Below, in pieces: positions 513 to 33,175 of a stretch of DNA of 52,136 nt. The notes beneath the pieces are model-generated. The model searched no databases. It worked only from the letters and a program-made list of their open reading frames with translations, and was not told the DNA's origin. Position 1 is the first letter of the stretch; each line of letters begins with the position of its first letter. Location of the stretch: NCBI GenBank assembly GCA_036479435.1, contig JAZGFI010000006.1, forward strand, positions 1 through 52,136, given 5' to 3'. Both the position numbers and the translations under genes were made by a program. The DNA is from Planctomycetota bacterium. GTDB taxonomy: Bacteria; Planctomycetota; GCA-002687715; DRQF01.

Positions 513-899
513 CTACTTCTCCTTTCTCGCCTTCGCTGCCGAAATTTCTCTGTTCTTGAATCACAGGATCATCCGCTCAACTTCATCGAGCGCCAATTTG
601 CCATGTCATCCAGTAGTCATGCCATTCCCCTTTTGCAAGGGCGGGAGACACGCATTGACTCGGGAGTGAACCCAACCACAGAAGCTACATTTGACCGCGT
701 TCTTTTCTTCTTCGGTCAACACTTGCTGCTGGAAACATGATCGGCAAATGACACCGGCATCGTCGACTGCCCGCGGCTCTTTCCGAACAGCTTCTCGAAG
801 GATTACATCCGTGCCGTGCAGATTTCGGAAACCTAACATGGCGCGAGAGATCTTGATCTGCGCTGCCAACTTTGGCCATGCCTCCCGAAACTTGCTCAT
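513..899 (-). CDS. Zinc-ribbon-like (CxxC...CxxC) hypothetical protein; conventional stop at 606, possible extension through two in-frame UGAs to TAG at 513
   Basis: CRSC...CSFCGW motif. The frame continues past TGA 606-608 and TGA 561-563 to TAG 513-515, which abuts the next ATG. Start at ATG 899 is a guess. Confidence 0.5.
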
Positions 900-969
900 T
901 CCATGGGCATCCAGCAATTCTCGAGATTATGCTCCACAGTGTTCCTTTTACATGAGTGGAGTTCCCCAA

Positions 970-1446
970 GTGTTTCTCGATCGAAAGATGCAAGAAGAGC
1001 TTCTATTGCGGTTGCGCGAAGATTATCCAGAGCCGGTGGAATTCCACGAAATTGCAGGAAGTGACGACCGGAATTTCCAGCAGAACGCGTTCTACTTGAA
1101 GGAACACGAGCTAATTGAAGGCTGGGATACTCAAGAACTCGGCGGGACCACTCCAACGGTTGAGACTGCAAGAATTACAAAGCTGGGGCTTGATCACCTC
1201 GAAGACGATGGCGGCATCGATGCAATTCGACGCACTGTCATCGTTCGTTTGGAAGCAGACGAAATCCGCGCGCTCATGACAGCCAAAATCGAGGCGGCTG
1301 ATATCCCGGCAACTCAAAAGGTCGAATTCTTGGAGCGACTAAAGTCGCTCGTTGGCAAGGCCTTCGACGACACTATTTTGAAGTTCCTCAAAGACGCGAT
1401 GAACAATCCAGAAGGCCTCGTTCGCATCTTCAGTCAAATCACATAG
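970..1446 (+). CDS. Hypothetical winged-helix-like protein of a type I associate with prophages (YL.EH.LI...IT..GLD.L.DDGG)
   Basis: Likely GTG start at 970 with GGAG RBS 8 nt upstream; the 691-969 extension in the ORF track overlaps an opposite-strand gene. Family assignment is from memory. Confidence 0.7.
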   Translation: MFLDRKMQEELLLRLREDYPEPVEFHEIAGSDDRNFQQNAFYLKEHELIEGWDTQELGGTTPTVETARITKLGLDHLEDDGGIDAIRRTVIVRLEADEIRALMTAKIEAADIPATQKVEFLERLKSLVGKAFDDTILKFLKDAMNNPEGLVRIFSQIT

Positions 1447-1555
1447 ACCTGCGTAAACAATTTAGAATGAACCGTTTATATGCCATCTGTTCACTTTTCC
1501 GCGTTTTCGGCCTCGAGTCAAGGTGCTCGACTCAGCCATCAAGAATGTGCGATCA

Positions 1556-1575
1556 TGTACAGAATAGCGTACAAT
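1556..1575 (+). promoter_or_regulatory. TA operator (TGTACA / CGTACA, 12-bp period) overlapping a TACAAT -10 element
   Basis: TGTACA 1556-1561, CGTACA 1568-1573 and TACAAT 1570-1575 lie just upstream of the antitoxin RBS; same geometry as the yefM-yoeB operator. Confidence 0.7.
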
Positions 1576-1591
1576 TCGCCGAGGTAGGACT

Positions 1592-1885
1592 ATGACACGC
1601 AGCACCGATATCACCAGCTTCACCGAGCACCGTCAGCATCTGAGGGATCACTTCCAGCAGATCAAAGAGACGGGCAGACCGCTCTACATCACAACAAATG
1701 GGCGCACCGATGCCGTCCTTCTCAGCCCGGAAGCCTATGACGCTCTGGCTGAAAAAGCGGAGATGATGGAAACCCTTGCGGCGCTCGACCGTGGCATGGA
1801 AGACGTTCGAGCTGGGCGAGGACGAGACATGAAGGAAGCGTTACGCGACATCGCTGACGAGCTTGGCTTGAAGCTTGAAGGATGA
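1592..1885 (+). CDS. Type II antitoxin, Phd/YefM family
   Basis: ETGRPLYITTNGRTDAVLLSPEAY motif, 97 aa, GAGGT RBS, ATGA overlap with the toxin gene. Confidence 0.92.
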   Translation: MTRSTDITSFTEHRQHLRDHFQQIKETGRPLYITTNGRTDAVLLSPEAYDALAEKAEMMETLAALDRGMEDVRAGRGRDMKEALRDIADELGLKLEG

Positions 1886-2304
1886 CCTACAGAGTTATCG
1901 TGACCTCTGCCGTAGAACGGCTTATTCTTGGCCAGGCGGCTTACATAGCTATCGAGCAAAGTGATCCCGAGCGCGCGGAAAAGTGGGTTCAAAAGGTCTT
2001 CAACGAGACCGAGAAGTTGGACGAGATGCCCCGTCGGTTTCAAAAAGCAACGGAAGACGCCTCGCGCGATTACGAAGTCAGGCGCATGCGGGTTGGTCAG
2101 TACCTTTTGTTCTTCACCATCGTTGAAGAAACGAAAACCGTCTGGGTCATCCACGCCAAAAGCACCCGCCAGAAAACACGGCCACATGATTTGCCGACCG
2201 ATCTTGAAGCCTTCACCCGGCTCGGAGACCAGTGGAAAGATCAGGTCAACGTCGAAGATGATTTCGACGATCCCCTGCCGGACAACGAAAATCCTAAAAA
2301 GTGA
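1882..2304 (+). CDS. Type II toxin, RelE/ParE family, with an acidic C-terminal extension
   Basis: MTYRVIVT...L.EMPRR...VRRMRVGQYLLFFTIVEETKTVWVIHA; translationally coupled to the antitoxin. Confidence 0.88.
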   Translation: MTYRVIVTSAVERLILGQAAYIAIEQSDPERAEKWVQKVFNETEKLDEMPRRFQKATEDASRDYEVRRMRVGQYLLFFTIVEETKTVWVIHAKSTRQKTRPHDLPTDLEAFTRLGDQWKDQVNVEDDFDDPLPDNENPKK

Positions 2305-2320
2305 ACACTTTGAGTGGGAA

Positions 2321-2423
2321 GTGTTCACCGACCACGTAGTTCTGGGCGGTTATCTGGGGGCCCTTCTCCTAGCCCTCGACGGCAAATCGTGAGCGCCTGA
2401 TCATGAAGATCACGAAGCACTAA
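2321..2423 (+). pseudogene. Possible decayed PIN-domain (VapC) toxin remnant
   Basis: Frame-broken fragments HVV-WAV and VSA*S*-ITK resemble the DTHVVLW and VSAASAWEIAIK motifs. Confidence 0.3.
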
Positions 2424-2425
2424 TG

Positions 2426-4129
2426 CTAATTGCCGAACAGTAACTGTAGACCATTTGAAATCGCATCGGGAGAGGTTGTTTGGGCCACCTGGTAGTAGAG
2501 TGAAATTCCCGCAATTGGAGGCCGAGAGAGAATCTCTGGGTGTCGGAATTCGCCAATTCCGTCGGCCATAGCCGTTGCCGTCAAAAACAAATCCTGAGGC
2601 AAAGGTGAAATCCACAGGGGATGCCCCGCGCCAAAAGTAGCACCATTCCCGGGCGCTGCACTGACGCCGACAAAAAGAGCTGCGTTGGGCAAGGCCCCCG
2701 TCAACTCGATGTAGCCCGTGCGGGGTTCTGTCGGAGATGGGACCCAAGCCAGCGACAGGCTGCTGCCTGCCGTTGGGTTGCCATAACTTTCTCCGCCGTG
2801 AGATTGCTTGAGAGTGATCAGAGTCGTTCCGGTGAAAACCGGGCCCGTTGGCGTAAAATTGATAGAGGTGGTCATCGGCTCGATTGTGACAATCTCCGCG
2901 ATGCCATCGCCGTTGGTGTCGCCAATCGCGCACTGAGCGTTGGTGCTGACACCGGGCCCCGCTGCGATGGATTCATGTCCAAATTCCAGAGTCTGCACCA
3001 AGCTGCCATCTCGCGACGAATAAATATATCCTCCTTCGCTTAGGACCGAGCCGTTGAGCAGAACGTCATCGCTGCCATCGCCATTGACGTCCCCGGCACT
3101 CACCATGGAACCAAAGAAGCCACCCGAAGGGTAGACCACCCAAAGCAAGGCTCCGGTCACACTGGAATAAGCCGAAACGTTGTTATTGAAGCTAGGCACG
3201 AGGAATCCCGCCGAAGATAAAACTAAAAAGTCCTTCACCGAGTCGCCGTCAATATCTTCGACCGCTAAAAGATTCTTGCCGAAAAGTTGTAGGGCGCTCC
3301 CCAAGAAACTTCGAATCGGGGAGTGATCCACGCCCGAATAAATCCGAGCGCCGCCACCCTGGTTAGCAAAAACTGAAAACGAAGTGGAAGACAAGATGTA
3401 GTCGTCTATTCCATCGCCATCGACGTCACCCAAGGAGGCGGAGGACGACAGGTTGAGCGGCCCGTTGAGCCCTCCGGAGAGATGGCTTCCGTCGGCCCCA
3501 TTGATAAGTTCGACGTAAAATTCGTAAGGACCGATCAAGATTGGACCGGAACCAGCCAGGCCTGAAACGACGAAGTCGACGATGCCGTCTGCGTTAAGGT
3601 CACCAACTGAAGAGATCTCATTCCCCTCAAACGAGAGTCCAGGCCAAGTCAAGGTCAGGATGGCTGGTGTCGCAACGTTGTCGAATATCTCGACCACCGT
3701 CGTCCAATAGGGCCCATTGGAGTTTGGGATGTTGACAACGGTCATCTCAGCGAATTCCTCGTCCCCGTCGCTGTCGATATCACCGAGGGCAAAAGGAACC
3801 ACAAGAGGAATCGTGGGAGAACTCGTCTGCCAATTCGAATAGGTTCTCAAGGCCCCGCCAGTCGCGCCGGAGTAAATCACGGACAAAGTCTCGCGAAGGA
3901 AGGTGCCGGGAATAGCTCGATCGAAATCCACATGATAATCCGCGTAGCCATCGTCATCGATATCGCCGATAGCGTGAAGACAACCATCTCCAGGAAATGA
4001 CTCGGAATGCGTCGCAACGCCGGGCAAATTCTGAGCGAATGCCTGTGAGGCCATGACCACAAATACAGCGGCTGTCAGCCAAGCGCAAGGGACAGTTACC
4101 GGGGCTTCAGTTTGGGAGAGAAACGCCAT
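2426..4129 (-). CDS. Secreted FG-GAP/VCBS-like repeat (integrin-alpha-like beta-propeller) protein with a C-terminal beta-rich domain
   Basis: Seven GD(I/V/L/T)(D/N)xDGxxD/E-type repeats (one EDIDGDSVKD variant), signal peptide (AFA-Q), ATG 4129 with GGAGG RBS. Confidence 0.85.
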   Translation of the reverse strand: MAFLSQTEAPVTVPCAWLTAAVFVVMASQAFAQNLPGVATHSESFPGDGCLHAIGDIDDDGYADYHVDFDRAIPGTFLRETLSVIYSGATGGALRTYSNWQTSSPTIPLVVPFALGDIDSDGDEEFAEMTVVNIPNSNGPYWTTVVEIFDNVATPAILTLTWPGLSFEGNEISSVGDLNADGIVDFVVSGLAGSGPILIGPYEFYVELINGADGSHLSGGLNGPLNLSSSASLGDVDGDGIDDYILSSTSFSVFANQGGGARIYSGVDHSPIRSFLGSALQLFGKNLLAVEDIDGDSVKDFLVLSSAGFLVPSFNNNVSAYSSVTGALLWVVYPSGGFFGSMVSAGDVNGDGSDDVLLNGSVLSEGGYIYSSRDGSLVQTLEFGHESIAAGPGVSTNAQCAIGDTNGDGIAEIVTIEPMTTSINFTPTGPVFTGTTLITLKQSHGGESYGNPTAGSSLSLAWVPSPTEPRTGYIELTGALPNAALFVGVSAAPGNGATFGAGHPLWISPLPQDLFLTATAMADGIGEFRHPEILSRPPIAGISLYYQVAQTTSPDAISNGLQLLFGN

Positions 4130-4464
4130 CTTACGACCTCCGAGAAAACGACGAGTACGCATTGAGGCTAATGTGCTGGACGATTTTCCAGGTGCAAAAA
4201 ATATTTCTCGCCTTCGTGTGGATGAGCATCTGCGCACGGCAAACACAGAAGGCGGGTGCGATGGATGTCAAGATAGTTGTCCCATTTTCAAATTAGTTAC
4301 GCCACATCTGGTCTCGGGTTCAGTCTGACCACATCGACGCGATTCCACGCCCTTGTTCCGAAATTCAAGAGGGCACTGGAGATGTTGAGAGAGTTGGAAT
4401 TGATTCGATCTACCTTGGTATCTCGACAAGTGCCGCCTACCCCGGAAGCGGGAACGATTTAAAG

Positions 4465-4767
4465 TTGGCGACAGGCATCAACGCGCCTCCAACAACAGGG
4501 GTGGGCCAAGAGATCAAGTCAGCTCTACCCTCGGACTTTTTGATCCTCCGGCTCCTTTCACTCAGCGGTAGCTGGCACGGAGACCCCTGTGTCGTTCTCG
4601 GACAGATCATCCCAACCGGAGTCGGTCCGACATTGTCGCTCAGTATTCCCGTTGGACTCTCAGGAAACAGCCTAATTCTGCAAGCAGTTGCGATTGATTT
4701 CGCGCCACCTGCAAGTGGATTAGGGATTTTTGAAACAACTGAGGCACACAAAATTCAGCTGCTGTGA
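4465..4767 (+). pseudogene. C-terminal fragment of a secreted protein (LSLSIP...LILQAVAID...T.A..I)
   Basis: Resembles only the C-terminal domain of the neighbouring FG-GAP protein; TTG start without RBS or signal peptide. Confidence 0.45.
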
Positions 4768-4788
4768 TCATTGATCAATGCAGCTGAA
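4754..4788. repeat. 35-bp imperfect palindrome TTCAGCTGC-TG-TGATCA-T-TGATCA-AT-GCAGCTGAA
   Basis: 15 of 17 symmetric positions are complementary; centred at 4771. Confidence 0.65.
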
Positions 4789-4973
4789 ATTCATTAAGCA
4801 AGAAACGAGGCGGCGCAGCCAGGGAAAGATTTCAGGCCTAGAGAGGAAGGAAATTTTTACTTGTATGGGACACAACCTGTTTGCGCAGCCTCTGATTGCC
4901 AGTTGCTGCGGTGAATTGGATCATCAGATTTTGGAGTCTGCACTGCGTCGCAAGTCTATTCAGATCACGGCTC

Positions 4974-5008
4974 GGAGTTCACAGATGTTTCTCGACCGAA
5001 AGATGTAA
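4974..5008 (+). repeat. Degenerate second copy of the 5' end (RBS + MFLDRKM) of the 970..1446 gene
   Basis: TGTTTCTCGAyCGAAAGATG matches 19/20 between 971-990 and 4986-5005; both copies are preceded by GGAGTTC; CAA is replaced by TAA in this copy. Confidence 0.75.
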
Positions 5009-5086
5009 AAAAACTGTCGGCGCTAACTCGCCGATGATTTTATTGTTGCTGGCGGTCGATAGGCCGCGAACTTACTCAACAACCCG

Positions 5087-5887
5087 CTAGCGGCTGCCAG
5101 GTCGCGTTGAGGTCTTGGGGCGGCTTTCGATGGCAGGCCGCGCCGGATCGCTGGCAATGGCAGCCTGCCGAGTTGCCTCTGTGGATTCGGCGAGGCGGCG
5201 CTGGGTGGCGCGGCGATTGTTGCGGATCAACCACCAGACCACGAGTCCCAGCATGGTGATGCCGCCGAAGAGGAAGACCGGGTTGCCCTGGATCATCTTC
5301 ATCTTCTCACCAAAAAGATGCGCAAGACTTGCCATGGCGAAGGCGCCGATGATGGCACCCAAAGCGATCCCGAGCATCGTTATGCGTTTGGAAAGACCCA
5401 AAAGGCGACCGAACAAAGACCCGCCGATCGCGCCGGTTCCAGAAAGTGGAAAGGTCACGAAAGCGATGATGCCGAAAAAGGTCACCTTTCTCATCCAGGG
5501 ATTGCGCCCGAGAATGCCCTTTCCGTTCTCTTGCATCGTCTCTATCTTTTTGCCGAAGCGCGGGATCTTGTAGAGCACGCCAATGTTGTAGACCGCAATG
5601 AAGCCGACGAGCAGATCCATGTAGACCACGAGGATCGCCAGCTTGAAGGGGCTGTCCAAAAAGCCCTCTTGGTGCAGGCCGCGCAGCACGATGAATTTAC
5701 CCGCGACGGTCGCCGTGGCCAGGGCGGTGGTGAAGAGCTCGAGCGTGGCGTCGCCACCGAAGAAGAAAAAGACCAACGACAACAACAGCACAGAGATGAC
5801 CACCGGCAGGCTCAGGCCGGAGTAGGACATCTCTTTGCTTTCATTGCGAAGCTGTTCGTCCGGGCGCGGCTCGTTCAAGGCCGACAT
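5087..5887 (-). CDS. Small multidrug export-like membrane protein (COG2426 family)
   Basis: Multiple TM helices and the FVTFPLSGTGAIGGSLFGRLLGL signature; AGAGG RBS. Confidence 0.8.
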   Translation of the reverse strand: MSALNEPRPDEQLRNESKEMSYSGLSLPVVISVLLLSLVFFFFGGDATLELFTTALATATVAGKFIVLRGLHQEGFLDSPFKLAILVVYMDLLVGFIAVYNIGVLYKIPRFGKKIETMQENGKGILGRNPWMRKVTFFGIIAFVTFPLSGTGAIGGSLFGRLLGLSKRITMLGIALGAIIGAFAMASLAHLFGEKMKMIQGNPVFLFGGITMLGLVVWWLIRNNRRATQRRLAESTEATRQAAIASDPARPAIESRPKTSTRPGSR

Positions 5888-5978
5888 CCTCTTCGTTAGG
5901 TGACTCGGGGTGACTGGTCGTGGTTGTGCTCGGGGCGAAGCGGGCGGCGTGGTTCATGGGAGCCCGGGCGCAAGGGGG

Positions 5979-6006
5979 ATTTTAGCAGCTGCCTCCACTG
6001 CTGCAA
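5979..6006 (-). promoter_or_regulatory. Putative sigma-70 promoter (TTGCAG-N16-TAAAAT with extended -10 TG)
   Basis: Minus-strand TGCTAAAAT about 90 nt upstream of the 5887 start. Confidence 0.45.
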
Positions 6007-6162
6007 CGACCCCCGTTTGCCTTTCACCAACTTAAGGTCCTATTAGGGTTTCGCGCGACCGGATTTTCGCTTTCAAGCTGATTTCCGAGTCCCGGTCTAA
6101 TACCAGCATTCTGGCCGAATGCGGCGCCAGGGCTCGAATAGGGGGCTTGAGCGGCTAGCTGA

Positions 6163-7404
6163 TCAATCCAGGAGCAGCGCAAGATCGTCCTGAAGGTCGC
6201 GGTAAGTTCGGTAGCGGTGCTGAGGTTTGGGCTCCATCATCCGCTGGATCAACATCCCGGTAGCCCGGCGCAAGGTCGGGGCCAAGGCGCGCGGATCCGG
6301 AGTTTTGCTCCGATCGAGATGTTGCACCGCAGCTTTATTCGTGCCAAATGGCAACACGCCGGTGGTCATCTGAAACAAACTGACGCCCAAGCTGTAAACG
6401 TCTCCCGCAAGGTCCGGTTTGGAATTCGCCAAGAATCGCTCGGGGGCCGCGTAGGCGGCAGTACCCTGCTGGCTACTGATTTCTGGCGAGACTCGACCCC
6501 GGCCCGCCATCGAATAGGAAAAGAACCGCGCGAGGCCAAAGTCACAGAGTTTGACCCGGTTGACTTCGTCGATGAGGAAGTTGCTCGGTTTGACGTCACC
6601 GTGGATGATTTTTTGCTGGGCCGCATAATCGAGCGCCAAAACGACTTGCCAGATCATCTCCAAAGCAACCGTTTCTTCGATTCGGCCCTCGCGGCGGATC
6701 ATGTGCCGGACTGAATCACCGTTGACATACTCCATGTCGATCCAGGTGAGGTCTTTCTCAGAGCCTCGCCCGTAGATCTGCACGATGTTGGGGTGTCTCA
6801 GCAACGTCAGAACGCGAGTTTCCTCCACAAAACGCACCAGATATGAAGGATGCTTGGCGAGGTGCGGCTTTAGGATCTTGAGTGCGACGGTGGCGTCGTC
6901 TTCTTCGCGACGCGCCTCAAACACGATGCCCATGCCGCCCGATCCGAGTCGACGGACCAAGCGGTAGCCCGGAAGATGGTAGGGGTCGAGCATGCGTTTT
7001 TTGGTGCGCTGCCCGGCGCGTGAACACTGCGGACACTTGGGCTCGTCGAAAGCCATCACATACCCGCACTGAAGGCAAGGCCGCACCTGTTCAGCTTCGT
7101 CTTCCTCCGGATCGGCTCCAAATCCCATGAGTGAAATCCTGACGTCGCCCACGTCGATGTAGTCACCGACTTTCATCAAACCCTGTTGCATGTAGATGCC
7201 ATTCACCCGAACCCCATGCCGGCTGGACATGTCTTCGGCGACGACCCGATCATCGGACACGCGGAACATGCAGTGCCGCCGCGACAAAGTCCCATGCCCC
7301 TTGAGCACGATGTCGCAGGAACGTGATCTGCCAACAACAAGTTCCTGGCCGGGGAACTCACGTTCGACTTCGGCACCATCTTCGTTGATCAAAAGGCGAA
7401 TCAT
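6163..7404 (-). CDS. FHA domain + double CxxC zinc ribbon + Hanks-type Ser/Thr protein kinase
   Basis: FHA (VGRS...SRRHC...S.HGVRVNG), CLQC/CPQC, LGSGGMG, VALK, HGDVKPSN, DFG and APE motifs; start moved to ATG 7404. Confidence 0.92.
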   Translation of the reverse strand: MIRLLINEDGAEVEREFPGQELVVGRSRSCDIVLKGHGTLSRRHCMFRVSDDRVVAEDMSSRHGVRVNGIYMQQGLMKVGDYIDVGDVRISLMGFGADPEEDEAEQVRPCLQCGYVMAFDEPKCPQCSRAGQRTKKRMLDPYHLPGYRLVRRLGSGGMGIVFEARREEDDATVALKILKPHLAKHPSYLVRFVEETRVLTLLRHPNIVQIYGRGSEKDLTWIDMEYVNGDSVRHMIRREGRIEETVALEMIWQVVLALDYAAQQKIIHGDVKPSNFLIDEVNRVKLCDFGLARFFSYSMAGRGRVSPEISSQQGTAAYAAPERFLANSKPDLAGDVYSLGVSLFQMTTGVLPFGTNKAAVQHLDRSKTPDPRALAPTLRRATGMLIQRMMEPKPQHRYRTYRDLQDDLALLLD

Positions 7405-7516
7405 GGGGTTAATATGGTGGCTGAAGTCAGTTCTGGCAAGAACACCGCATTTAGTTCGGCGGTAAAGGCGACGTTTAGGGGGGTGATCCCTTGGTACAAG
7501 CGGCAAAAACCGTCGA

Positions 7517-8995: not shown

Positions 8996-9235
8996 GCCGT
9001 CGTCCCAAGGTTTTGATGATGTCAGCGTAGCGGCCAGAGTCCGAACGGCGCCGACCGGTCTCTTGGATGCCCCACCATGTCTCGGAATTGCGGCCGGGTC
9101 AACCTTACCCCTTTGAAGCACTTATTCTGAGGCGTCCAACTTGCAGTCTTGTATCATGCCGCAAAGGGCTCTTATTGTTCCTGCGGAAACGAGTTGCGAG
9201 AACCGCCCGCGGACCAAGTTACCGCCGAGATCATC

Positions 9236-11671: not shown

Positions 11672-11674
11672 TCC

Positions 11675-12652: not shown

Positions 12653-12679
12653 CCACCTGAGTTTTCAAACTTTCCTCAT

Positions 12680-13125: not shown

Positions 13126-14376
13126 CTATCGTTGGGATTTTTCGGGAGCCGTTGGTACCTGATGCCTTCTAAACTCGGGAATCCGGGGCGGGTGATCTCG
13201 GTCAAAATTGCGGAGCCAAGCGAACTCGGCCGTTTGCTTTTTGATTCGCCACCAAGCTTGCACCTTGCTGAGGATTTCGGGGTCCTTTGGGCCGAAGCCG
13301 AGCTTGCGAACCCTGGACAAAGTGCAGGCAGCCTTGACCAAAAGCGAGAGTGGAAGTGTGAGTTGCGGGGTTTGAACCTTTCCCAAGCTGACACTCTTCT
13401 TCGGCACCTTCAGACGGCCAAGGTGAACAGCGTTTCGATTGGCTAATTGGTGGATGACTCGCAGGTGGTCGACAGCTCTGGCGTCAAAAGGCCGGTCGTC
13501 GACAATGAACTCGCCGAGGGCGTAGACCGCGGCCGTCCTCATCCTCGCGCCGATATAGTCGCTGGCACCTTTGCGGGGGGCGACGAGGGTGAGTTCAACC
13601 ACGGTGTTCCAGTCTGAAGAGCCCTTGCCATTGAGAAATCGGGCCGTCATGAGGCGGAGGTCGTGGATGCAAAGGTGTTGGCAATGAAGGTCTTCATGGA
13701 TCTTCTTTTTTAGGGCTCTCAGCGCCAAGCGCGAAACGGGGTTCGCGGCCGCTTTCAATTTGTGAAACTTGGCGTGCCGCTCGAGCATTACATCGAGTTT
13801 GCGGGCAGCATGGCTGAAAACCTCGGAGCTTTCTGCAACTTCAATGCACATGCAACCCGAGGAACCAAAAACCTGCTGGCCATCAGGGTCCATCAACAAG
13901 AAAAAGGCGTAGATCTGTTTGGTCCAAGGATCTCGATAATAATCGGCCTCCCAAGCCTTCAGAGCGGGAAGGCCCTGAGGGAATCCTGAATCCGTAGCGT
14001 TGATGAGAACTGGTACCGTTCTCTGGTTGATTGTCTCGGGAACCCCGGGCCGCTCTAGCATATTGATACGCATGGCGTGCTGGCCAGCTCAGACAAATGG
14101 GCTGTCAGAGTCCCCCATGAAGCGGACGTCAAAAACCAAGAGTACTGGTCGTCCCAGCTCCTCTGCCCGCTTGCGAGCGGCGTCAAGGTTCTTCGCCCAA
14201 CGTACCTTGCCCTTATAGTCCATCGACCGGGCGTGGGTCGACCGCTTCAATGATCTTGGGCCCTCAGCAGGCTTGGCCTCCGTGGCCCGCCGCTCTTGGC
14301 CCAGGGCACTGGACGCAAGACCGAGCATCGTCAGCCCCAAGAGCAGCATTCGAAACGGTGCGGTAGTGAGCTGCAT
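13126..14376 (-). CDS. Putative secreted thioredoxin-fold selenoprotein (SelN-like active-site segment), UGA at 14089-14091 read as Sec96; 416 aa
   Basis: ORFs 14089..14496 and 13126..14073 share a frame and are joined by TGA plus 5 codons. Signal peptide, then W..NLDAARKRA...GRPVLLVF...U...MR...L...V...IN...VPV and LLMDPDG thioredoxin-like elements span the TGA. Confidence 0.75.
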
Positions 14377-14406
14377 GGACGTTTCCCCGCAGGAATGAAA
14401 ATTTGG

Positions 14407-14580: not shown

Positions 14581-15108
14581 CATGCCTACATCGAGATGAC
14601 GCCTTTTTACCTCGTTAAGTAGGAGATCGACAAGAAGACGGGCTACTTGCGGGTCGATCGACCGCAGCGAAGTTCTTCGATGCCGCCCTCCCTTTATGGA
14701 TTTATTCCGCGTACTTACTGCGGGCCGCGGGTGCAGGAGCTCAGCCCGACGTCGCGGGCGGGCGATGGCGATCCCTTGGACATTTGCGTGTTGTGCGAGC
14801 GCCCGATCAACCGCGGTGAGGTGATTTTGGACGCCCGCGTTATCGGCGGGCTACAGATGGTCGACGGTGGCGAAGCTGACGACAAGATCATCGCGGTGTT
14901 TGCGAAGGATCGCATCTGGGGCGACGCGCATGATTTGAGTGATCTGCCGGAGGCCTTGCCGGAGCGACTGCGCCACTATTTTCTGACCTACAAACTGGTT
15001 CCGGGGGATTCTCCCGACGTCTCGATTGAAAGCGTCTACGGCGCCGAGCACGCACGCCGCGTGGTCGAGGCTTCGGTGGCTGACTATCAAGACCAATTTG
15101 GCGACTAG
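14581..15108 (+). pseudogene. ppa: Family I inorganic pyrophosphatase pseudogene (5'-truncated, internal TAG)
   Basis: [26 protein letters not shown]...YGFIPRT...GDGDPLDI...[13 protein letters not shown] 14620-14622 replaces the Tyr of KYE; N-terminus absent (in-frame TGA at 14560). Confidence 0.85.
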
Positions 15109-25748: not shown

Positions 25749-26251
25749 CAGTCGCCTCCCTCAATCGCAGCCGTGACTTTTTTGTCCATGATGCCCTCTT
25801 TGAGCCAACGGGCTGAGCGCCGCGACAGGGCGTGAACAACCAGTGTGTTGCCTTCGACGCCAACGGTCAGGGTACCCGGCGTCAAGGTGATGGAGTTCGC
25901 ATACATCGTGCGCCCAAGGTCCGTCTTCTGCCCCATCTCGATGCGAATGATGTCGGGTTGCACCGGAATCTCTGGATGCAAAATGCGCTGGGCCACCTTC
26001 AAGTTCGAGCTGAAGATCTCGCCCATCAACCAAAAGCCGAGCCGGGGAAAACGCGGCACCAAAGCCAGCAGGTCGCCCTCGCGATCCACCAACCCCATGC
26101 GAAAAGATAAAAAGACCACCACCACGACCGATGCCAGCCCAAATCCCAAGGTGAGGGGAAGGAAGTAGCCCGACCAAAGCAGCCAAACGCCACCTAAAGT
26201 CACGGTCAATGACACGACGCTAGAGATCTTATTTTGTGATCGAAAACTCAA
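25748..26251 (-). CDS. mrpE: Mrp/Mnh antiporter subunit E
   Basis: WLLWSG, ANSITLTPGT, VHAL; start uncertain (TTG 26251 follows a purine-rich tract). Confidence 0.9.
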   Translation of the reverse strand: MSFRSQNKISSVVSLTVTLGGVWLLWSGYFLPLTLGFGLASVVVVVFLSFRMGLVDREGDLLALVPRFPRLGFWLMGEIFSSNLKVAQRILHPEIPVQPDIIRIEMGQKTDLGRTMYANSITLTPGTLTVGVEGNTLVVHALSRRSARWLKEGIMDKKVTAAIEGGD

Positions 26252-26381
26252 TCCCCGCCCCTTCCCAACGATCCTTCTAAAGCGTGATCGAACGCAGAGC
26301 CGCGCCGACCTGAGCGAAATCATAAAGTCTTGCCCTATCCCGTCTACCGACGATCGGCCCTCGCCTCAGCCCGACCGTCAC

Positions 26382-26409
26382 TTGCATATCTTTTGAGCAA
26401 CAATACACT
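26382..26409 (+). promoter_or_regulatory. Putative sigma-70 promoter TTGCAT-N16-TACACT
   Basis: AT-rich patch in the divergent mrpE / HEAT-VWA intergenic region. Confidence 0.4.
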
Positions 26410-26673
26410 TACTATAAGTAGCAACTCTCGTCCAAAAGGTGGGTCGGGCCTTTCTCGGCGACACAAAAACACAGAAGCCAATGCAAATGCCGATCATCGC
26501 GACGAAAGGGCGCCGCCAACAAGATGGTGCAACCTTCCCGCGCGGTCATCCCCGAGGTCAATTTCCTTGTTTCGGCGATCGAGTCTCCGGGAAATTCTGA
26601 AGCCTATTCGTAGCGGCAGGCGGCATCGCTAAGCTACAAACTCTCGCCGAAAGATTCATGGAACCCCCACCCA

Positions 26674-28305
26674 ATGCCCAGTTTTTGCCACCGCACGCTT
26701 GCTTTCGCGGCAATTCTTCTTGGCCTCAGTGCCTACGGAGCCGCGGCACAAGACGCCACAAAGCGTTTTGCGAAACTCAAAAGACAGTATGCGGATGCGC
26801 GCGGTGATCACTCTCTTCAAGGCGCCCGCGGATTGGTGACGATCGTCCGCCGAGTCCCCGAGATCAGTTTTGCCGACCATAAAAAGCTCCGCGCCAAAGC
26901 CGAGAAGTTCCTGCAGAGAATCGTGACGGGTAAGGGCTCGGATCAGATGTTTCGCGTGCGGGTCGCGGCCTTGGAATCGCTCGCCTCCTTGGCCCAGTCA
27001 AAATCAAGCGCCAGCTTCTTCCTAAAAACTCTCCAGAACAACGACCGTTCACTACGCACGATTGACTACTGGGCAACGCGGGCGCTCCGCAACGCACAGG
27101 ACCCAGGATTCGTGAAGGCCATTGCGGCGAAAGGTCTCGGGCATAAGAGAGCGGCGGTTCGTCGCGCCGTCCTCTCCGGTCTCGCGAAGGTCAAGACTGA
27201 CGAGCTTAGAACGGTCGTCAGAAGCGAAGAAAAGTTGATCTTGAAGGCCCTCAAAGACCGCGATGAGCTCAATCGCTACTACGCCGTTCGCCTCATCGCT
27301 GCTGTCAAGCTCGAATCCGCACTGCCGCAAGTCATCGAAGCAGCGTTTAGCAAGAAGGCCCTCGTTCGAATGGCGGCTGCCTACTCACTCGGGGAGTTCT
27401 CCGACAAGCCCCAAGCTTGGAAGACGCTCTCGGTCATGCTTAAAGACCCGCAAGCGCGGGTGCGAGAAGAAGCCGTCATTTCATGTGCGCGTGGTGCTGG
27501 CTCCAAAGCCATCCCAGTCTTGATCGCGCGTCTTGACCAAGAACCCTTGCGCATACAGTCGGCGATCTTCGAGGCCCTCGAAACGATCTCCGGGATGAAG
27601 GGGCGCGTCGCCCGCAAAAAAAGTCTCTGGGAGTCGTGGTGGTTGGCCAACCGCGAGGAACTCCTGAACGGCAACAGCGACGCCGACACAGCCAAGAAAG
27701 TGAAGCCAGCCGGCGAGACCAAGTACGCCGTCAACTACTACGGCATCCCTCTGCAATCGGACAAAGTTGTCTTTGTCGTCGACATCAGCGGCAGCATGGA
27801 GTTCGGCGCCGAGGCCGGCGGCGAAAAACGAATAGACGTGGCTCGCAAAAAGCTGCTTGAGGTCGTCCAAAAACTCGACAAAAAGACCCAGTTCAATGTC
27901 TTGGCCTTCTCAGGCTCCAACCTCTACTACAAATCCAAAGGCCTCATGCCCTGCACGCCTGAGAACAAACGAAAAGTCTCGAAGTGGATTCGCGGGCTCA
28001 AGACCGGCGGCGGCACCAACACTTACGCAGCACTCGAGGCCATCTTCGAAGAGTATTCCAAGGCCGACACCTTGTACCTGCTATCCGACGGAAGCCCCTC
28101 AAGCGGCAAGGTCTATCAGCAAGAACACCTCATCGCTCAGGTCCACAAATGGAACCTCCGCCGCCGCCTTCGCATCCACACCATCGCCCTTTTATCCGGA
28201 GACATCCCCAAGACGGGCCCCCTGGCCGACGAGAAGAACGAAGCCGCGCGCTTCATGAAGCAGCTAGCCGACATCACCGGCGGCAGCTTCGTCCTCGAGG
28301 ACTAG
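26674..28305 (+). CDS. Secreted HEAT-repeat + von Willebrand factor A domain protein
   Basis: Signal peptide; L.D....VR..A HEAT repeats; MIDAS motif VVFVVDISGSM, GGTNT and LLSDG.P. Confidence 0.9.
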   Translation: MPSFCHRTLAFAAILLGLSAYGAAAQDATKRFAKLKRQYADARGDHSLQGARGLVTIVRRVPEISFADHKKLRAKAEKFLQRIVTGKGSDQMFRVRVAALESLASLAQSKSSASFFLKTLQNNDRSLRTIDYWATRALRNAQDPGFVKAIAAKGLGHKRAAVRRAVLSGLAKVKTDELRTVVRSEEKLILKALKDRDELNRYYAVRLIAAVKLESALPQVIEAAFSKKALVRMAAAYSLGEFSDKPQAWKTLSVMLKDPQARVREEAVISCARGAGSKAIPVLIARLDQEPLRIQSAIFEALETISGMKGRVARKKSLWESWWLANREELLNGNSDADTAKKVKPAGETKYAVNYYGIPLQSDKVVFVVDISGSMEFGAEAGGEKRIDVARKKLLEVVQKLDKKTQFNVLAFSGSNLYYKSKGLMPCTPENKRKVSKWIRGLKTGGGTNTYAALEAIFEEYSKADTLYLLSDGSPSSGKVYQQEHLIAQVHKWNLRRRLRIHTIALLSGDIPKTGPLADEKNEAARFMKQLADITGGSFVLED

Positions 28306-28720
28306 GCAGCACCCCAACAGCAACGGCAACGCGGGCAGGCCGTTGAAAAGAAACGCTGTAGTTTAGGGGAGGAAGTCGGCCGATGAGGGTGCTACGGCCT
28401 GATGCCAGAGGTGGGCTATGGTAGGCAGCCCTGAGGTTGGGGAATTGCGTCATCGAAGGTGATCCTGATCAACTTTTGCTCGGCATATCGCTTGCGGCGG
28501 GGATTCTTCACCTTTGCGGTGGCAAGGCGCTTTGTTCGGGTTGGGCGGGAAATGGCAGAGCGACTCTTGCGGCAAAGCCGTTGCCCCGCACGCGAAGTGC
28601 TTATTCGCTTGAAGGCAGAGAACGTCTACCTCGACAAGCACTTCGGCGTCACGCTTCGCTGAGGAATCGCTATCCGCGGTGCCTCGCTGCTGTAAGATCA
28701 AGTTCGGCCAAAGGAGATTC

Positions 28721-30784
28721 ATGTCGGTGCGCTTATTCCTTTTTTTGGTTTTGAACTTGCTGCCGGTTGTCGTTTGGGCCCAGGAGCCACCGAGCGATGA
28801 TGACTTGGGGCAGTTGCAGTGTCGCATTCGAGATGCGGTGAGGCGGGTTGCACCGGCGACAGTGGGCGTGCGAACCAAAAAAGATGGCCAGGGTGGTCGG
28901 GGGAGTGGCGTCATTGTGACCGCCGATGGCTTGGTCATGACCGCGGCTCACTGCATGGCGAAGATTGGTTCGAAGTGTTGGGTGGTCTTGCCGAGCGGGC
29001 GTGTGTTGGCGGCGGTCAATTTGGGTAAAGGCAAATCATCCGACGCGGGCCTGATGCAGATTACCGCAAAAGGCCCCTGGCCTTTTGCCCCCTTGGGCAA
29101 GTCGAAGGACTTGGCGCGGCGGCAGATTTGCTTGGCCTTGGGGCACCCCGGGGGATTTTCGGCTGGGCGGGCGCCCGTGGTTCGAGTCGGCGCCGTGTTG
29201 GGATTTCGCAGCGATCACGGCGAGTTTTTGCGAACAACTTGTGTCGTGAGGCCTGGAGATTCCGGCGGGCCACTGATTGACCTCGACGGCAAGGTCATTG
29301 GCATCCACAGCAACATCTCCGCTTCTCTGCGCGAGAACTTCCAGGTTCCGGCGGAAGTCTATCGACGTGATTGGGATCGCATGCTGGCGGGGAAATTCGT
29401 GAAGCCAAGAAAGGCAAAAGGCAAGAACAAGAAATCCGCTGCGCCTTATCTTGGGCTCAAGTGCCGCAACACCGCGAACGGTTGCGAGGTCATGGAAGTC
29501 GCTGAGAACTCCTCGGCGGCGGCCGCTGGCTTGAGAGTTAAGGACCTCATCTTGACGGTCGACGGCGTCGGCGTGAGCGACCGTCGAGCGCTTCGGCGGC
29601 GAGTCCGCGAGAGCCGGATCGGCGATCTGATCCGTGTCCGGGCGCAGCGCGGTGAATTTGAGTTGAAGATCACTATTGAGCTCAGATCCAAAGTGGTTCC
29701 CAAGGACAAAATCGAGGTCGAGAGCGACGGCACCGTGGCAGAGAATGAAGTGCTGAATCGCGAGGAGTTGGTCGGCGAAGCCCCAGATCGCAAGGCGGAA
29801 CGAAAAATAGAGGCTTGGCTCCGCGATGATCATCGCTTGGTTGACCTCTTCCAATCAACCGCCGAGAGAGTGGAGGCCGCCCTTTGTGAGTTGAGCTGGA
29901 AAGTACAGGGAAAAGACCGAGTTGCCAGCGGGCTCCTGGTCTCGGGTGAGGGCGAATTGCTTCCGAAGTCTTCTGAGCTTGCGAGCGACGATTTGCTCAT
30001 CCGGGTTAAGTTGAAGGACGGCCGTGAGTCGCCGGCAAAGGTTCTGGCCAGGGATGCCGCGAGTGACCTATGTCTGTTGCGAGTGCCGCTCGATGAAGTG
30101 TCGCATTTGGCGCCAGTGCGGGGGCGACGTTTCGCGCGTCTTCGCGTCGGCGACCTTTTACTGAGTTCCTCGGTACAGGGCGGATTGGAGTGGGGAGTTC
30201 TGAGCGTCGCATCCCCAACGATTGAGGGCTCAGCCGGCGGCTACCTCGGCATCAAATTCGCCAAGTTCGACGACTACGGCACGCTTATCTCAAGTCTTGA
30301 GGATGATAGTCCGCTTCATGGTGCGGGAGTCGGGGCGGGCGATGCCATCCTTGCGGTCAATGGCCAGGCAGTGGCCAATGTGCGCGAGGCGAAGGCGGCG
30401 CTGCAGGCGTTTGGGCCCGAAAAACGCCTTACGCTGCGCATCCGCCGCGGCGTCAAAGAAATGGACTTTGAAGTGTTGGTGGGCAAGCCGCCCGTTCGAG
30501 CCATGGGTCCCGGTGGGAGCGGCGGTGCCGCCAAGACCAGCCGCCACCGGGGTCCCTATCCCGATGCCTACTTGCACGATGCGATTATTACGCCGGCCGG
30601 ATGTGTGGGACCCGTGACAGACCTCAAAGGTCGGTTCATCGGTCTAAACATCGCGCGCGCGACGCGCACGGATACGGTCGCCTTGACGACAACTGCCGTC
30701 GTGAGAGCTTTGGCGCGCTTGCGCGCCAAAGCGGCGCGAGTCCTCAATTCAAAACGCCTCCGTCGCCACCGCAGCACTCCCTAA
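28721..30784 (+). CDS. Secreted tandem trypsin-like protease-PDZ protein (HtrA/S1C-like); second protease domain degenerate
   Basis: AAGGAG RBS at ATG 28721; TAAHC, SDAGL and GDSGGP triad in domain 1; PDZ loops YLGL and YLGI; domain 2 reads LPKSSE / DLCLL / GCVGP. Confidence 0.88.
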   Translation: MSVRLFLFLVLNLLPVVVWAQEPPSDDDLGQLQCRIRDAVRRVAPATVGVRTKKDGQGGRGSGVIVTADGLVMTAAHCMAKIGSKCWVVLPSGRVLAAVNLGKGKSSDAGLMQITAKGPWPFAPLGKSKDLARRQICLALGHPGGFSAGRAPVVRVGAVLGFRSDHGEFLRTTCVVRPGDSGGPLIDLDGKVIGIHSNISASLRENFQVPAEVYRRDWDRMLAGKFVKPRKAKGKNKKSAAPYLGLKCRNTANGCEVMEVAENSSAAAAGLRVKDLILTVDGVGVSDRRALRRRVRESRIGDLIRVRAQRGEFELKITIELRSKVVPKDKIEVESDGTVAENEVLNREELVGEAPDRKAERKIEAWLRDDHRLVDLFQSTAERVEAALCELSWKVQGKDRVASGLLVSGEGELLPKSSELASDDLLIRVKLKDGRESPAKVLARDAASDLCLLRVPLDEVSHLAPVRGRRFARLRVGDLLLSSSVQGGLEWGVLSVASPTIEGSAGGYLGIKFAKFDDYGTLISSLEDDSPLHGAGVGAGDAILAVNGQAVANVREAKAALQAFGPEKRLTLRIRRGVKEMDFEVLVGKPPVRAMGPGGSGGAAKTSRHRGPYPDAYLHDAIITPAGCVGPVTDLKGRFIGLNIARATRTDTVALTTTAVVRALARLRAKAARVLNSKRLRRHRSTP

Positions 30785-30906
30785 AACAGCTCACGCCATG
30801 TGCGCAAACCCGCAGCATTCGCGTCAAACGTTTTTCACTAACCTTTCAAAACCAAGATCAAGTCTCCACCCATTCTGGCGACCGATCAACTTGCGCGGAA
30901 CGTGGG

Positions 30907-31467
30907 CTATTCGGCTCGCTTTTTCATCATCGATTCGATGCGGCCAAGGCTATCGCGGATGTCAGCGAGGATCTCTGTAGTGTCGGAGGTCGAGTTTTGG
31001 GAAACGGTGGCGGCAACATCGGATTTGACCGTAACGCGATCGCGTTGGGCGAGGACCGCGTCTCGAAAGTCGCGAGCGTTCTCTACGGCCGTCAAGGTGA
31101 CCAGCGCACTTTGCCCCGAGCCGCCAGCGGTTTCGATCGAAAGCGACTGAATGTCGAAGTAGCGCATGATCGGGCCCTGTATGAGGCCTAGGTCGGTGAT
31201 CTTGTCGAGCGGAACGGTTTTTTCTTGGCGTACGAAAAGTCCCCGGCTTACTTTTAGAGTCCTCTCAGTCAGGGTGCAGCTCATGTTGTCGAGGTATTTC
31301 TTCGTGAGGGCGAGACCGAGCGGTATCCACAGCAGCAACAAGGGAATCCCCACGCAACTGAAAGTCAGTGCGATGGTGCCGGAGAGCAACCAGTACTGGC
31401 AGACTTTGGGATTGAACTTTGCTTCGAGTAACACGGTGTCGTCATTCATGATCGGCTCCAAGGTCAT
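30907..31467 (-). CDS. Bacterial PH domain (bPH_2) membrane protein
   Basis: One or two N-terminal TM segments, then RGLFVRQEKTVPLDKITD...QGPIMRYF...IETAG. Confidence 0.88.
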   Translation of the reverse strand: MTLEPIMNDDTVLLEAKFNPKVCQYWLLSGTIALTFSCVGIPLLLLWIPLGLALTKKYLDNMSCTLTERTLKVSRGLFVRQEKTVPLDKITDLGLIQGPIMRYFDIQSLSIETAGGSGQSALVTLTAVENARDFRDAVLAQRDRVTVKSDVAATVSQNSTSDTTEILADIRDSLGRIESMMKKRAE

Positions 31468-31567
31468 TCATTTCTCGGTTGGGCATTAGAGCCCGGATCG
31501 CCGCGCTTGCCAATATGCGCCGCCGAGTTGTTAAGACCTCATTGCAGTTTTCCTTCAGGAGTTTGCC

Positions 31568-32056
31568 GTGGCCTCGCTTCAAATCCGTCCACTGACTCGC
31601 CTCGACAACCCTCAAATTGCCGAGGTGATCCGCGCCGTCATGCCGGAGTTTGGGGCGCAGGGACCAGGCTTTGCCATCCACGATCCCGAGGTCGATGCGA
31701 TGCATGCCGCCTATTCGTTAGTTCGCGCCGCGTATTTTGTGGTGGAAGAAGACAATCGCGTGGTGGGAGGTGCTGGTTACGCAGTCCTAGAGGGCGGTGA
31801 CCGGGATATTTGCGAGCTGCGGAAGATGTACTTTTTGCCCGAGCTTCGTGGCCGCGGAGTCGGTGCCGACATCCTGAAGTTTGTCTTGGCTCAAGCGGCC
31901 GCGGCGGGATTTCGCCGCTGCTACTTGGAGACCTTGACGGGCATGGATGCGGCCAAAACTCTCTATCGCCGTTTTGGGTTTGAAACCCTCGACGGCCCCT
32001 TGGGCTGCACCGGGCACTTTGGCTGCGACACCTGGATGATTCGGGATCTCGATTGA
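31568..32056 (+). CDS. GNAT family N-acetyltransferase (YjgM-like)
   Basis: CELRKMYFLPELRGRGVG, CYLET, A..LY..FGF, GCTGHFGCD; AGGAG RBS. Confidence 0.92.
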   Translation: MASLQIRPLTRLDNPQIAEVIRAVMPEFGAQGPGFAIHDPEVDAMHAAYSLVRAAYFVVEEDNRVVGGAGYAVLEGGDRDICELRKMYFLPELRGRGVGADILKFVLAQAAAAGFRRCYLETLTGMDAAKTLYRRFGFETLDGPLGCTGHFGCDTWMIRDLD

Positions 32057-32087
32057 GCCTCCACCAGTTTGTCACGTGACCAAAACA

Positions 32088-32140
32088 CTCAAGGCCTCCA
32101 ATCTACGCGACCTTGGGACGCGGAAAGAGGAGGCCTTGAG
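32088..32140. terminator. 12-bp perfect inverted repeat between convergent genes; probable 3'-end structure
   Basis: CTCAAGGCCTCC (32088-32099) / GGAGGCCTTGAG (32129-32140) with a nested CGCG/CGCG stem; no long U-tract. Confidence 0.6.
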
Positions 32141-32158
32141 ACTTACAGGCGAGCTGAG

Positions 32159-33175
32159 TTAGTTCAGTCCTCGCCCCCGGACTCGCGAAGAGGAACTGCC
32201 ATTCGACCGAGTGGCGCGGGACGCTTTTCGGTTGATCTTTGACCTTGCGTCTCCGAGGAAGTTGTTGGTGCGGATGACGCGCTTTTTTTTGACAACGCGA
32301 CGCGTTGCCCTTTTCTTGGGGCCTCAGCTAGGAGCCTTCCTTTTGACGCCGCGACGCGGCGCCTTCTTTTTGGGTCCTCAGCTTGCGGCGCGTTTTTTGA
32401 CGACGCGGCGGGCGGCGGCTTTTTTTGGTGACCGGGGGGAACTCAAGCTTCGGGCTGCGCTGGCTCGCCGATTGAAGGAAGGGCTCGACTTATCGATGAC
32501 CTTCGCTCCCGCTAGTGCCTTGAAGACGAAAGTCTCGTAGGGAGCCGTGCGGCTGGTGTCAAAAGACTTAAACACCGTCCGTCTCATGACGCGATCTCGG
32601 CGATCAAACTGCTCAATGCGCAGAGGGATCCCGGTTTGTTGATCAAAGGCCGACACCTGTCGGGTGTAGGCTGCGCGCGATCTTTTGTGCGGGGTCAGTT
32701 CCAGAACCCAGCAGGGTCGCCCCAAGACCTTGGCCTCGGGCAGAAGCTTGACCTCATCGTTGCGCAGACGCGCATTGAGGACAGGATTCTGCGGCGGCAT
32801 GCTCGGAGCCGCGTCTTTGGTTACCACGGTTCTGCCGGCAACATCACCCCAGGAGTAGATCATCTTGCCATCGCGAATCGAGGTGTGCTTAAGCGGCTTG
32901 GTGCTGCCGTCGGCGGTGGGCATCTGGCCTCGGGTCTCGATGCGCCATTTGATCAGCCGCCCGGATTGCTGCCAATCCTGCACGACCCGGCTTTTCTGCT
33001 CGCGCCTGAATTCAATTCCAGTGAAAACGCTGTTTTCTATTTCGGCGTGAAACGCCGAGGTTGCCTTGGCCCGCCTCGCGATCTTTTTACCGATCGACTC
33101 GGTTGTTTCTTGCCCCGTCGCGATACCGACAGACAAAAACAGGCCCAGGGCTCCCATTAAGGAAATCCGTTGCAT
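32159..33175 (-). CDS. Secreted LolA-like fold protein with a basic 18-aa repeat tail containing two in-frame UGAs (putative Sec266 and Sec284); 338 aa if read through, 265 aa if not
   Basis: Signal peptide; V.GRPCWVLELTP...D.QTGIPLR.E..D...F.F...GAKVID. The frame continues S*GPKKKAPRRGVKRKAPS*GPKKRATRRVVKKKR...LN to TAA 32159-32161. Confidence 0.75.
32291..32309 (-). promoter_or_regulatory. Putative bacterial SECIS hairpin 2 (GGCAACGC-GUC-GCGUUGUC)
   Basis: 8-bp stem starting 14 nt after UGA 32324-32326; loop begins GU. Confidence 0.7.
32345..32363 (-). promoter_or_regulatory. Putative bacterial SECIS hairpin 1 (GGCGCCGC-GUC-GCGGCGUC)
   Basis: 8-bp stem starting 14 nt after UGA 32378-32380; two compensatory pair changes relative to hairpin 2. 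Confidence 0.7.

Follow-up and report, generated by a model that had tools for sequence, protein, structure and literature searches.

Candidate selenocysteine codons in a 52-kb stretch from a Planctomycetota bacterium predicted to be rich in selenoproteins

The stretch analysed here (hereafter the window) comprises 52,136 nucleotides (nt) of contig JAZGFI010000006.1 from a Planctomycetota bacterium (assembly GCA_036479435.1). A first-pass annotation had flagged five UGAs in this window, at positions 561, 606, 14089, 32324 and 32378, as candidate selenocysteine (Sec) codons in three genes. We conclude with good confidence that the host possesses the Sec machinery, is predicted to encode about 35 to 49 selenoproteins and likely marks its Sec codons by hairpins with a GU loop lying at a variable distance; UGA 14089 would almost certainly be recoded, the two UGAs in the tail of the 32.3 kb gene likely so, and those at 561 and 606 likely not. 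A more far-reaching proposal is only tentative: each tail repeat would carry a Sec with its own insertion signal and without any cysteine (Cys) counterpart, selenium would set the tail length (short, medium or long), and the host would belong to an oxygen-respiring class with most of about 49 selenoproteins located outside the cytoplasm, several Sec located in flexible linkers and an insertion signal placed 45 nt behind the UGA.

Sec machinery and hairpins behind UGA codons

In bacteria, SelB loaded with Sec-tRNA holds a hairpin located behind the UGA, the selenocysteine insertion sequence (SECIS), and delivers Sec before the release factor acts. The host genome (5.47 Mb, 92% complete, 1% contaminated) contains tRNA-Sec, selA, selB and selD, each above curated cut-offs; the first-pass proposal depended on the presence of tRNA-Sec and SelB. 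One contig carries selA, selD and tRNA-Sec together, and selD itself has an in-frame TGA. The host is also placed among Sec-decoding organisms by its known selenoprotein genes with an in-frame UGA (SelD, FdhF, SelW, VPGUxxT, MsrA and others). Since UGA is also the most frequent ordinary stop (1929 of the 4314 called genes), recoding is site-specific here, and the earlier statement that the genetic code is not changed genome-wide stands.

Alternatively, read-through could be genuine but result in the insertion of Cys or Trp by a suppressor-type tRNA, as exists in some bacteria. Homologues do carry Cys at many of the columns concerned. However, the sole UCA-anticodon tRNA among the 44 tRNAs found matches the Rfam tRNA-Sec model over its cut-off and is encoded beside selD and selA, UGA remains the commonest stop and the read-through sites are marked by hairpins. 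This explanation is therefore very improbable.

A codon model was built, genes were called and every stop in the six frames was examined genome-wide. At 30 of 32 calibration sites, picked by protein motif or paralogy, the UGA is followed by a GU-loop hairpin whose loop starts at +18 to +35; among control stops and Cys codons the share is 4-6%. Applied to sites outside this set, the strict hairpin rule picked FdhF, a PrxQ, a DF-family gene and a ResA-like gene with a UxxU motif, all matched afterwards by NCBIfam. A strict hairpin together with a coding margin above 1 on both sides occurs at 40 of 2328 hairpin-bearing TGAs, versus 2 of 599 TAAs and none of 891 TAGs. Likewise, when stops are flanked in frame by called genes, a hairpin follows 30 of 129 TGAs, versus 0/98 TAAs and 0/107 TAGs. 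Strict GU hairpins are not enriched behind ordinary stops (14/1055 for TAA and 16/1198 for TAG, with a background of 1.4%). The loops of the host sites read GGUC, CGUG or GUU/GUC. We propose that each of the host UGAs is likely recoded via such a downstream hairpin, at a distance that varies from gene to gene. Two points weigh against this: the figure of 30/32 is in-sample because the folds of the 32 sites had already been seen when the rule was drawn up, and 12 of the 44 UGAs supported at the protein level lack a strict hairpin.

Some other criteria and sites were discarded. Coding potential by itself gives no excess of TGA over TAA or TAG, and either a hairpin or homology is required. A relaxed hairpin rule does not discriminate (extra passes at 27/220 TGAs, 11/124 TAAs and 21/156 TAGs). 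Four hand-picked sites lacking a hairpin were removed before the tally. Two turned out to be stops, namely the genuine one of triose-phosphate isomerase and one ahead of a TetR/SDR-like stretch; the others are in-frame TGAs of a 5'-nucleotidase (contig:position C117:47342, minus strand) and an IS21 transposase (C89:679, plus strand), taken as probable nonsense mutations.

The first-pass annotation had proposed that all five UGAs encode Sec with a fixed spacing, the hairpin loop starting at +22 or +23. Such a hairpin can indeed be drawn at all five, and a loop start of +21 to +23 is a common offset (9 of the 32 sites with a strict hairpin). However, among the 44 protein-supported UGAs the strict hairpins, present at 32, start their loops at +18 to +37 and only five do so at +22/23. 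The calibration that had been recommended, on SelD and formate dehydrogenase, already contradicts a fixed spacing, with loop starts at +33 and +19 (FdhF), respectively. Furthermore, strong GU loops are found only behind 32378 and 32324, whereas the hairpins of 561 and 606 have no loop starting with GU, their coding margins are negative and their frame has no homologue in 300 genomes or in the protein database. The fixed-spacing proposal is thus practically untenable. A hairpin definition permissive enough to admit all five UGAs (at least 4 bp, -1 kcal/mol or lower, loop at +22/23) is satisfied behind 115 of 1345 gene-ending TGAs, 51 of 765 TAAs, 62 of 812 TAGs and 173 of 1500 Cys codons (7-12%), and therefore the offset alone is weak evidence. 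The comparison with genuine stops, suggested by the first-pass annotation, gives a different result for GU-loop hairpins, which are rare at +22/23 (5/1345 TGAs, 5/765 TAAs, 7/812 TAGs and 9/1500 Cys codons).

According to a review (PMC13188914), the bacterial SECIS (bSECIS) consensus comprises a loop of 3-9 nt with a G at position 1 or 2, often followed by G or U, a stem of 4-16 bp and a spacing of 16-37 nt. The host resembles this known system in having all four components, and 32 of the 44 protein-supported UGAs as well as both tail UGAs fit the consensus as given there. It differs in the clade of UGA 14089 (five loci), whose sole GU-loop hairpin lies at +45/46, outside the range of 16-37 nt.

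A predicted exported thioredoxin-fold protein at 14.1 kb

Read through its UGA, the 14.1 kb gene (Table 1) encodes a 416-aa protein (aa, amino acids) with a signal-peptide-like start, a thioredoxin-fold domain and a helical C-terminal domain of about 200 residues. Databases store it as two separate proteins of 95 and 315 aa, as anticipated by the first-pass annotation, which had expected standard annotation to fragment selenoproteins. Furthermore, 53 of its 70 non-self database relatives start directly behind the UGA, and 13 of the 14 database proteins that span this column have Cys there. In DNA, the column reads TGA at 19 and TGC at 2 of the 21 family loci (19 genomes; one locus with the C-terminal part only is excluded from this count). 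The model of the read-through protein has a mean pLDDT (predicted local distance difference test) of 80, with the thioredoxin fold over residues 50-210, across the UGA, which falls where thioredoxin-fold proteins carry their catalytic Cys. When this predicted model is compared with solved chains, the best match is 3f9u_B (Z 11.0, root-mean-square deviation 3.1, 123 residues aligned); DsbH, DsbD-gamma and AGR-type domains head the lists obtained with the N-terminal domain. Foldseek gave no match at E<=0.001, and a scan of metagenomes for the family retained none of 196 candidates.

These data have to be weighed against another possibility, namely that 14089 is an ordinary stop or a nonsense mutation and that the 315-aa frame is a separate gene starting at an ATG five codons later. 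This would agree with the lack of a strict hairpin and with the start assigned to the protein by gene callers in many genomes. However, it is hardly credible that a mere stop would be kept as TGA at a single column by 19 loci, in alternation with Cys, at only 23-37% protein identity, or that the joined protein would fold confidently with a thioredoxin domain across the UGA. Hence, on the basis of its sequence, 14089 almost certainly encodes Sec, which would be the single catalytic residue of a 416-aa exported thioredoxin-fold oxidoreductase.

The location of the SECIS is less straightforward. Two observations count against recoding of 14089: the site fails the strict hairpin rule, no GU-loop bSECIS being found at 16-37 nt in the five close loci, and the distal 4-bp hairpin of the window itself is no better than expected from codon choice (P=0.38). 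Among the distant TGA-bearing members, a GU hairpin is located between +21 and +26 in 11 of 14 (relaxed 4-bp rule), and neither of the two Cys members has one. In the clade of the window (five loci), no hairpin is found at +21 to +26 and a GU hairpin lies instead at +45/46. In the four close relatives this distal hairpin has 5-8 bp, at +45, and is better than expected from synonymous recoding (P=0.0007, 0.002, 0.004 and 0.06). All five loci of the clade encode the same Gly by GGG (17% usage). We propose that this clade uses a relocated, long-spacer SECIS at +45/46; the hairpin at this position is probably the one used for 14089. The clade offers a natural test of the maximum distance between SECIS and UGA in bacteria.

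The protein can be compared with the families NF041383 (VPGUxxT) and NF041199 (Trx7/PDZ), with which it shares an exported Trx7/DsbH-like N-terminal domain and a Sec at the equivalent site (E=3.7e-4). It is a member of neither; it scores 20.2 bits against NF041383 (cut-off 275), and 15 relatives fall likewise far below. Unlike them, it has neither the VPG motif nor a resolving Cys/Thr at +3, and the MsrA-like or PDZ part is replaced by the helical C-terminal domain of about 200 residues. The true NF041383 member of the host is located on another contig. The 14.1 kb family can be viewed as an unnamed selenoprotein family, present in databases mostly as fragments.

Table 1. Coordinates of the features discussed in the text (positions in the window)
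Feature	Position	Strand	Description
Predicted exported selenoprotein gene, unnamed family	13126..14376	-	416 aa through one UGA; ATG at 14376
In-frame UGA	14089..14091	-	Plus-strand TCA; start of helix after first core strand
Weak proximal hairpin of the first-pass annotation	14058..14071	-	UCAA loop at +23, 5 bp, -2.0 kcal/mol, no GU loop
Distal GU-loop hairpin, candidate long-spacer SECIS	14037..14047	-	GUU at +46, 4 bp
LolA-like/RseB-fold exported protein gene	32158..33175	-	265 aa to first UGA; 338 aa to TAA through both
54-bp repeat R1	32390..32443	-	Undisputed coding part; Arg codon at the R2/R3 UGA position; no hairpin
54-bp repeat R2	32336..32389	-	UGA at 32378-32380, context S-U-G-P-K-K-K
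R2 SECIS-type hairpin	32345..32363	-	8 bp, GUC loop at +23, -13.5 kcal/mol
54-bp repeat R3	32282..32335	-	UGA at 32324-32326, context S-U-G-P-K-K-R
R3 SECIS-type hairpin	32291..32309	-	8 bp, GUC loop at +23, -9.6 kcal/mol
12-bp inverted repeat	32088..32140		Between the read-through TAA and the stop of a convergent GNAT gene
Frame with UGAs 606 and 561	513..917	-	Unsupported as selenoprotein or as gene

The repeat tail of the 32.3 kb gene

The 32.3 kb protein has a signal-like start, a LolA-like/RseB-fold domain and then a basic, Lys/Arg-rich tail containing three 54-bp repeats (R1-R3). Its N-terminal domain matches PF17131 (47 bits versus a gathering threshold of 30) and is also over the cut-off of PF03888, and its look-alike clusters are LolA/RseB-like. 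It thus seems to share the LolA-like/MucB-RseB fold. Read-through of the UGAs in R2 and R3 would extend this exported protein from 265 to 338 aa by a disordered tail in which an S-U-G-P-K-K repeat occurs twice, each time with a separate hairpin. The two UGAs lie in a low-complexity basic repeat, outside any redox or metal motif.

Both UGAs belong to the 40 TGA sites that combine a strict hairpin with a margin above 1 on both sides, and both agree with the bSECIS criterion (G/GU loop, 16-37 nt, at least -7.5 kcal/mol). Between R2 and R3, 13 of the 54 bases have diverged, eight of them at third codon positions, and nevertheless both copies keep the TGA, the GUC loop and the eight pairs; the four differences located in the stem form two fully compensated pairs. 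The stem survives in about 1.2% of the simulations with at least four stem changes. Moreover, a G-U pair in both copies makes the minus-strand RNA fold better than the plus strand, where the stems are reduced to 6 bp, and therefore favours a minus-strand RNA over a DNA palindrome or a plus-strand structure. Synonymous recoding of R2 and R3 yields a passing hairpin in only about 2% of 3000 trials per repeat, and therefore the tail peptide does not force the hairpin. At the protein level, R3 and R1 have 10 of 14 residues in common although 16 bases have changed (5.1 expected on average under the null, P=0.00025, with a model that assumes base changes to be evenly spread). Among 3343 genes, this is the only one followed by a Lys-rich open frame. 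The stretch is unbroken in one other sequencing run and two further runs cover both UGAs, with zero differing letters; four runs were compared, one being possibly the source of this DNA. The stretch is therefore no assembly error, and no strain variant was seen in these runs. There is also a precedent in the lineage for TGA within a low-complexity segment, in a gene with a Gly/Ser-rich linker on another contig and in three other genera.

Several results weigh against Sec in the tail. The downstream coding margins of the two UGAs are low (1.7 and 1.5), in a range where two likely false sites are found as well. Taken by itself, the comparison between R2 and R3 falls short of significance (P=0.05-0.08). 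Read on the plus strand, both hairpins also qualify as terminator-like sites. Searches for homologues of the tail returned only the protein itself from the protein database, none among 163 candidates from metagenome contigs and one weak match in 22 genomes of the class. The one relative found (28% identity) has a Cys-free Ala/Pro/Lys tail that ends at a TGA without hairpin, and 12 other LolA-like matches have no such tail, the frame chosen being doubtful for about three of them.

The rival reading is that 32378 is a true stop, R2 and R3 being either a recently silenced former basic tail or a duplicated unit made of a stop and a terminator, with hairpins that terminate transcription. No tail homologue has Cys or TGA, the R2 hairpin begins 15 nt past the stop, and T-runs on the plus strand after both hairpins give a terminator-like score, such sites numbering 7 versus 2.9 in shuffled sequences. 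A recently silenced tail would, in addition, still appear coding. However, the conservation of TGA, loop and pairing between the diverged copies, the shortening of the stems to 6 bp on the plus strand and the lack of enrichment of strict GU hairpins at ordinary stops argue against this explanation, as does the separate 12-bp inverted repeat directly behind the read-through TAA at 32158, which is likely the real transcript-end hairpin. We consider a true stop at 32378 unlikely; 32378 and 32324 probably both encode Sec.

If so, chains that end at one or the other UGA for want of Sec would reach only 265 or 283 aa, and therefore tail length would depend on selenium supply. As a guess, the 265-, 283- and 338-aa forms would result from selenium-dependent extension, and the two Sec would be free for diselenide formation or metal binding outside the cytoplasm. 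To our knowledge, nearly all Sec of known bacterial selenoproteins lie in a redox or metal motif with Cys homologues. Search methods rely on such Cys-homologue motifs, and therefore a Sec in a low-complexity tail would be invisible to them. If the tail is indeed read as proposed, tandem duplication can carry Sec codons, together with their hairpins, into parts of a protein that have no catalytic role, where they may adjust its length.

Selenoproteome of the host and other features of the window

The first-pass suggestion of a selenoprotein-rich organism is borne out. Protein-level support, in the form of a family model spanning the UGA, paralogues, or Sec/Cys pairs in orthologues, was obtained for 35 genes (44 UGAs). 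These include 13 TlpA/ResA-like, 4 HMA, 2 AhpD-like, 2 DUF3179 and 5 unnamed ones as well as nine singletons (VPGUxxT, deiodinase-like, DsbD-Trx, SelW, DF, PrxQ, FdhF, MsrA and SelD). Eleven more genes are predicted from motif and hairpin or from a weak family match, and two are weak or broken; with the 32.3 kb gene, the predicted total reaches up to 49. According to a crude heuristic, 35 of 47 predicted selenoprotein genes have a signal-peptide-like start, versus 890 of all 3769 genes. The host is therefore predicted to encode about 35 to 49 selenoproteins, mostly with export-like N-termini.

Selenoprotein-rich bacteria are already known. Published figures are 63 selenoproteins in a Methylomirabilota metagenome-assembled genome (MAG) and 57 in an Olavius symbiont (PMC13188914), 46 in Desulfosediminicola flagellatus (PMC12013277), 39 in Syntrophobacter (PMC5029168) and six in the Planctomycete strain P1 (PMC4807772); the richest organisms are described as predominantly anaerobic (PMC13188914). 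By these figures, the total of the host (35 firm, up to 49) is similar, near 46 and below 57 and 63. Families in common are TlpA/ResA, AhpD, HMA, SelW, MsrA, FdhF, DUF3179 and deiodinase-like. The host differs from the organisms described there in being a member of Planctomycetota, in its export bias and in having three matches to heme-copper oxidase subunit I (COX1 family) and no match to dsrA in its 92% complete genome. These last two features suggest oxygen respiration, as far as can be judged from an incomplete genome. Furthermore, selA is above cut-off in all 23 genomes of the class, each of which has an in-frame TGA in one or more of its AhpC/TSA matches (among the 150 listed of 286). 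This suggests that a selenium-rich lineage showing signs of oxygen respiration has been overlooked.

The mechanism is thus known, and most families of this selenoproteome are already catalogued. Table 1 of PMC13188914, with 119 selenoprotein families, includes no LolA-like family. Relative to that table and the literature searched, the 14.1 kb family, the hairpin at +45, the Sec-bearing basic tail and an export-biased, selenoprotein-rich class of Planctomycetota appear to be new. The literature search returned nothing on such a class, though the groundwater MAG study behind the figure of 63, or supplements, may cover these families. Nor did it return any paper about a disordered bacterial tail containing Sec or a SECIS spacing of 45 nt.

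Several other host genes have unusual UGA arrangements. Tandem UGA-UGA codons occur in three exported genes (C103:140343, plus strand, L110; C119:38585, minus strand, L113; C55:7338, plus strand, L111). At this site their relatives have C-U, U-U, T-U, G-U or a single U, in 19/19 loci for the family of the C103 and C119 genes (own copy counted) and 5/5 for the C55 gene; the former family is found in 20 of the 23 class genomes. A fourth, weaker tandem case is located at C30:41643 (minus strand). The linker gene mentioned above (C116:19854 and 19869, plus strand, L063) has two UGAs in its Gly/Ser-rich linker, at a distance of five codons from each other and with one common GGUC hairpin (+37 and +22). 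Its orthologues in three other genera have one to three TGAs in the linker, with a GU-loop hairpin in two of the three, and it matches no Pfam or NCBIfam family. One common hairpin (+30 and +21) also follows both UGAs of the UxxU active site of an exported ResA/TlpA-like protein (C218:1689 and 1680, minus strand, L065). Candidates that belong to no catalogued selenoprotein family are located at C220:1002, C295:7573, C126:2861, C209:1612, C226:1647, C283:2013 and C97:31012; among them are FG-GAP repeat proteins (two paralogues with W-U-C), C-U proteins and a candidate whose GU hairpin lies at +39.

The positions of the five flagged UGAs are confirmed, all on the minus strand and reading TCA on the plus strand, and their frames are plausible for 14089 and the 32.3 kb pair but not at 0.6 kb. 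There, the hairpin of 606 (GAA loop, 8 bp, -8.5 kcal/mol) and that of 561 (GCAG loop, 5 bp, -2.4 kcal/mol) both fail the strict rule, and the coding margin is negative on one side of each UGA. No homologue of the frame was found in the 300 other genomes, nor in the protein database among proteins of 73-235 aa. GC content is lower around the frame (52% versus 58%), which adjoins a contig-end repeat and overlaps in part, on the other strand, a plus-strand gene with a paralogue. An origin as a HEPN/DUF86 remnant was rejected, since PF01934 gave no match at E<=1, and the two CxxC-like pairs of the frame gave only zinc-ribbon matches below threshold. As far as sequence can tell, 561 and 606 are likely chance stops and do not encode Sec. 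The order of support given by the first-pass annotation, which placed 32.3 kb first, is thus changed: 14089 is best supported, the 32.3 kb pair is likely but has no tail homologue, and 561/606 are unsupported.

The same GC-poorer contig start carries a toxin-antitoxin pair (1592-2304, plus strand) made of a Phd/YefM antitoxin and a ParE toxin, the stop of one gene overlapping the start of the other. Positions 1-130 of the window contain the end of a repeat, about 127 bp long, that occurs at more than 25 places, mostly contig ends, with 88-100% identity; this is probably the end of an insertion element or of a miniature inverted-repeat transposable element (MITE). Near the ends of contigs C24, C185, C211, C237 and C247 there is another repeated element, whose 11-bp hairpin is very stable (-22.6 kcal/mol). 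Finally, the Pfam match of an inorganic pyrophosphatase (14602-15108, plus strand) begins at model position 22. Its frame contains a TAG at 14620, upstream of which the sequence still looks coding; the N-terminus thus seems to carry a nonsense mutation.

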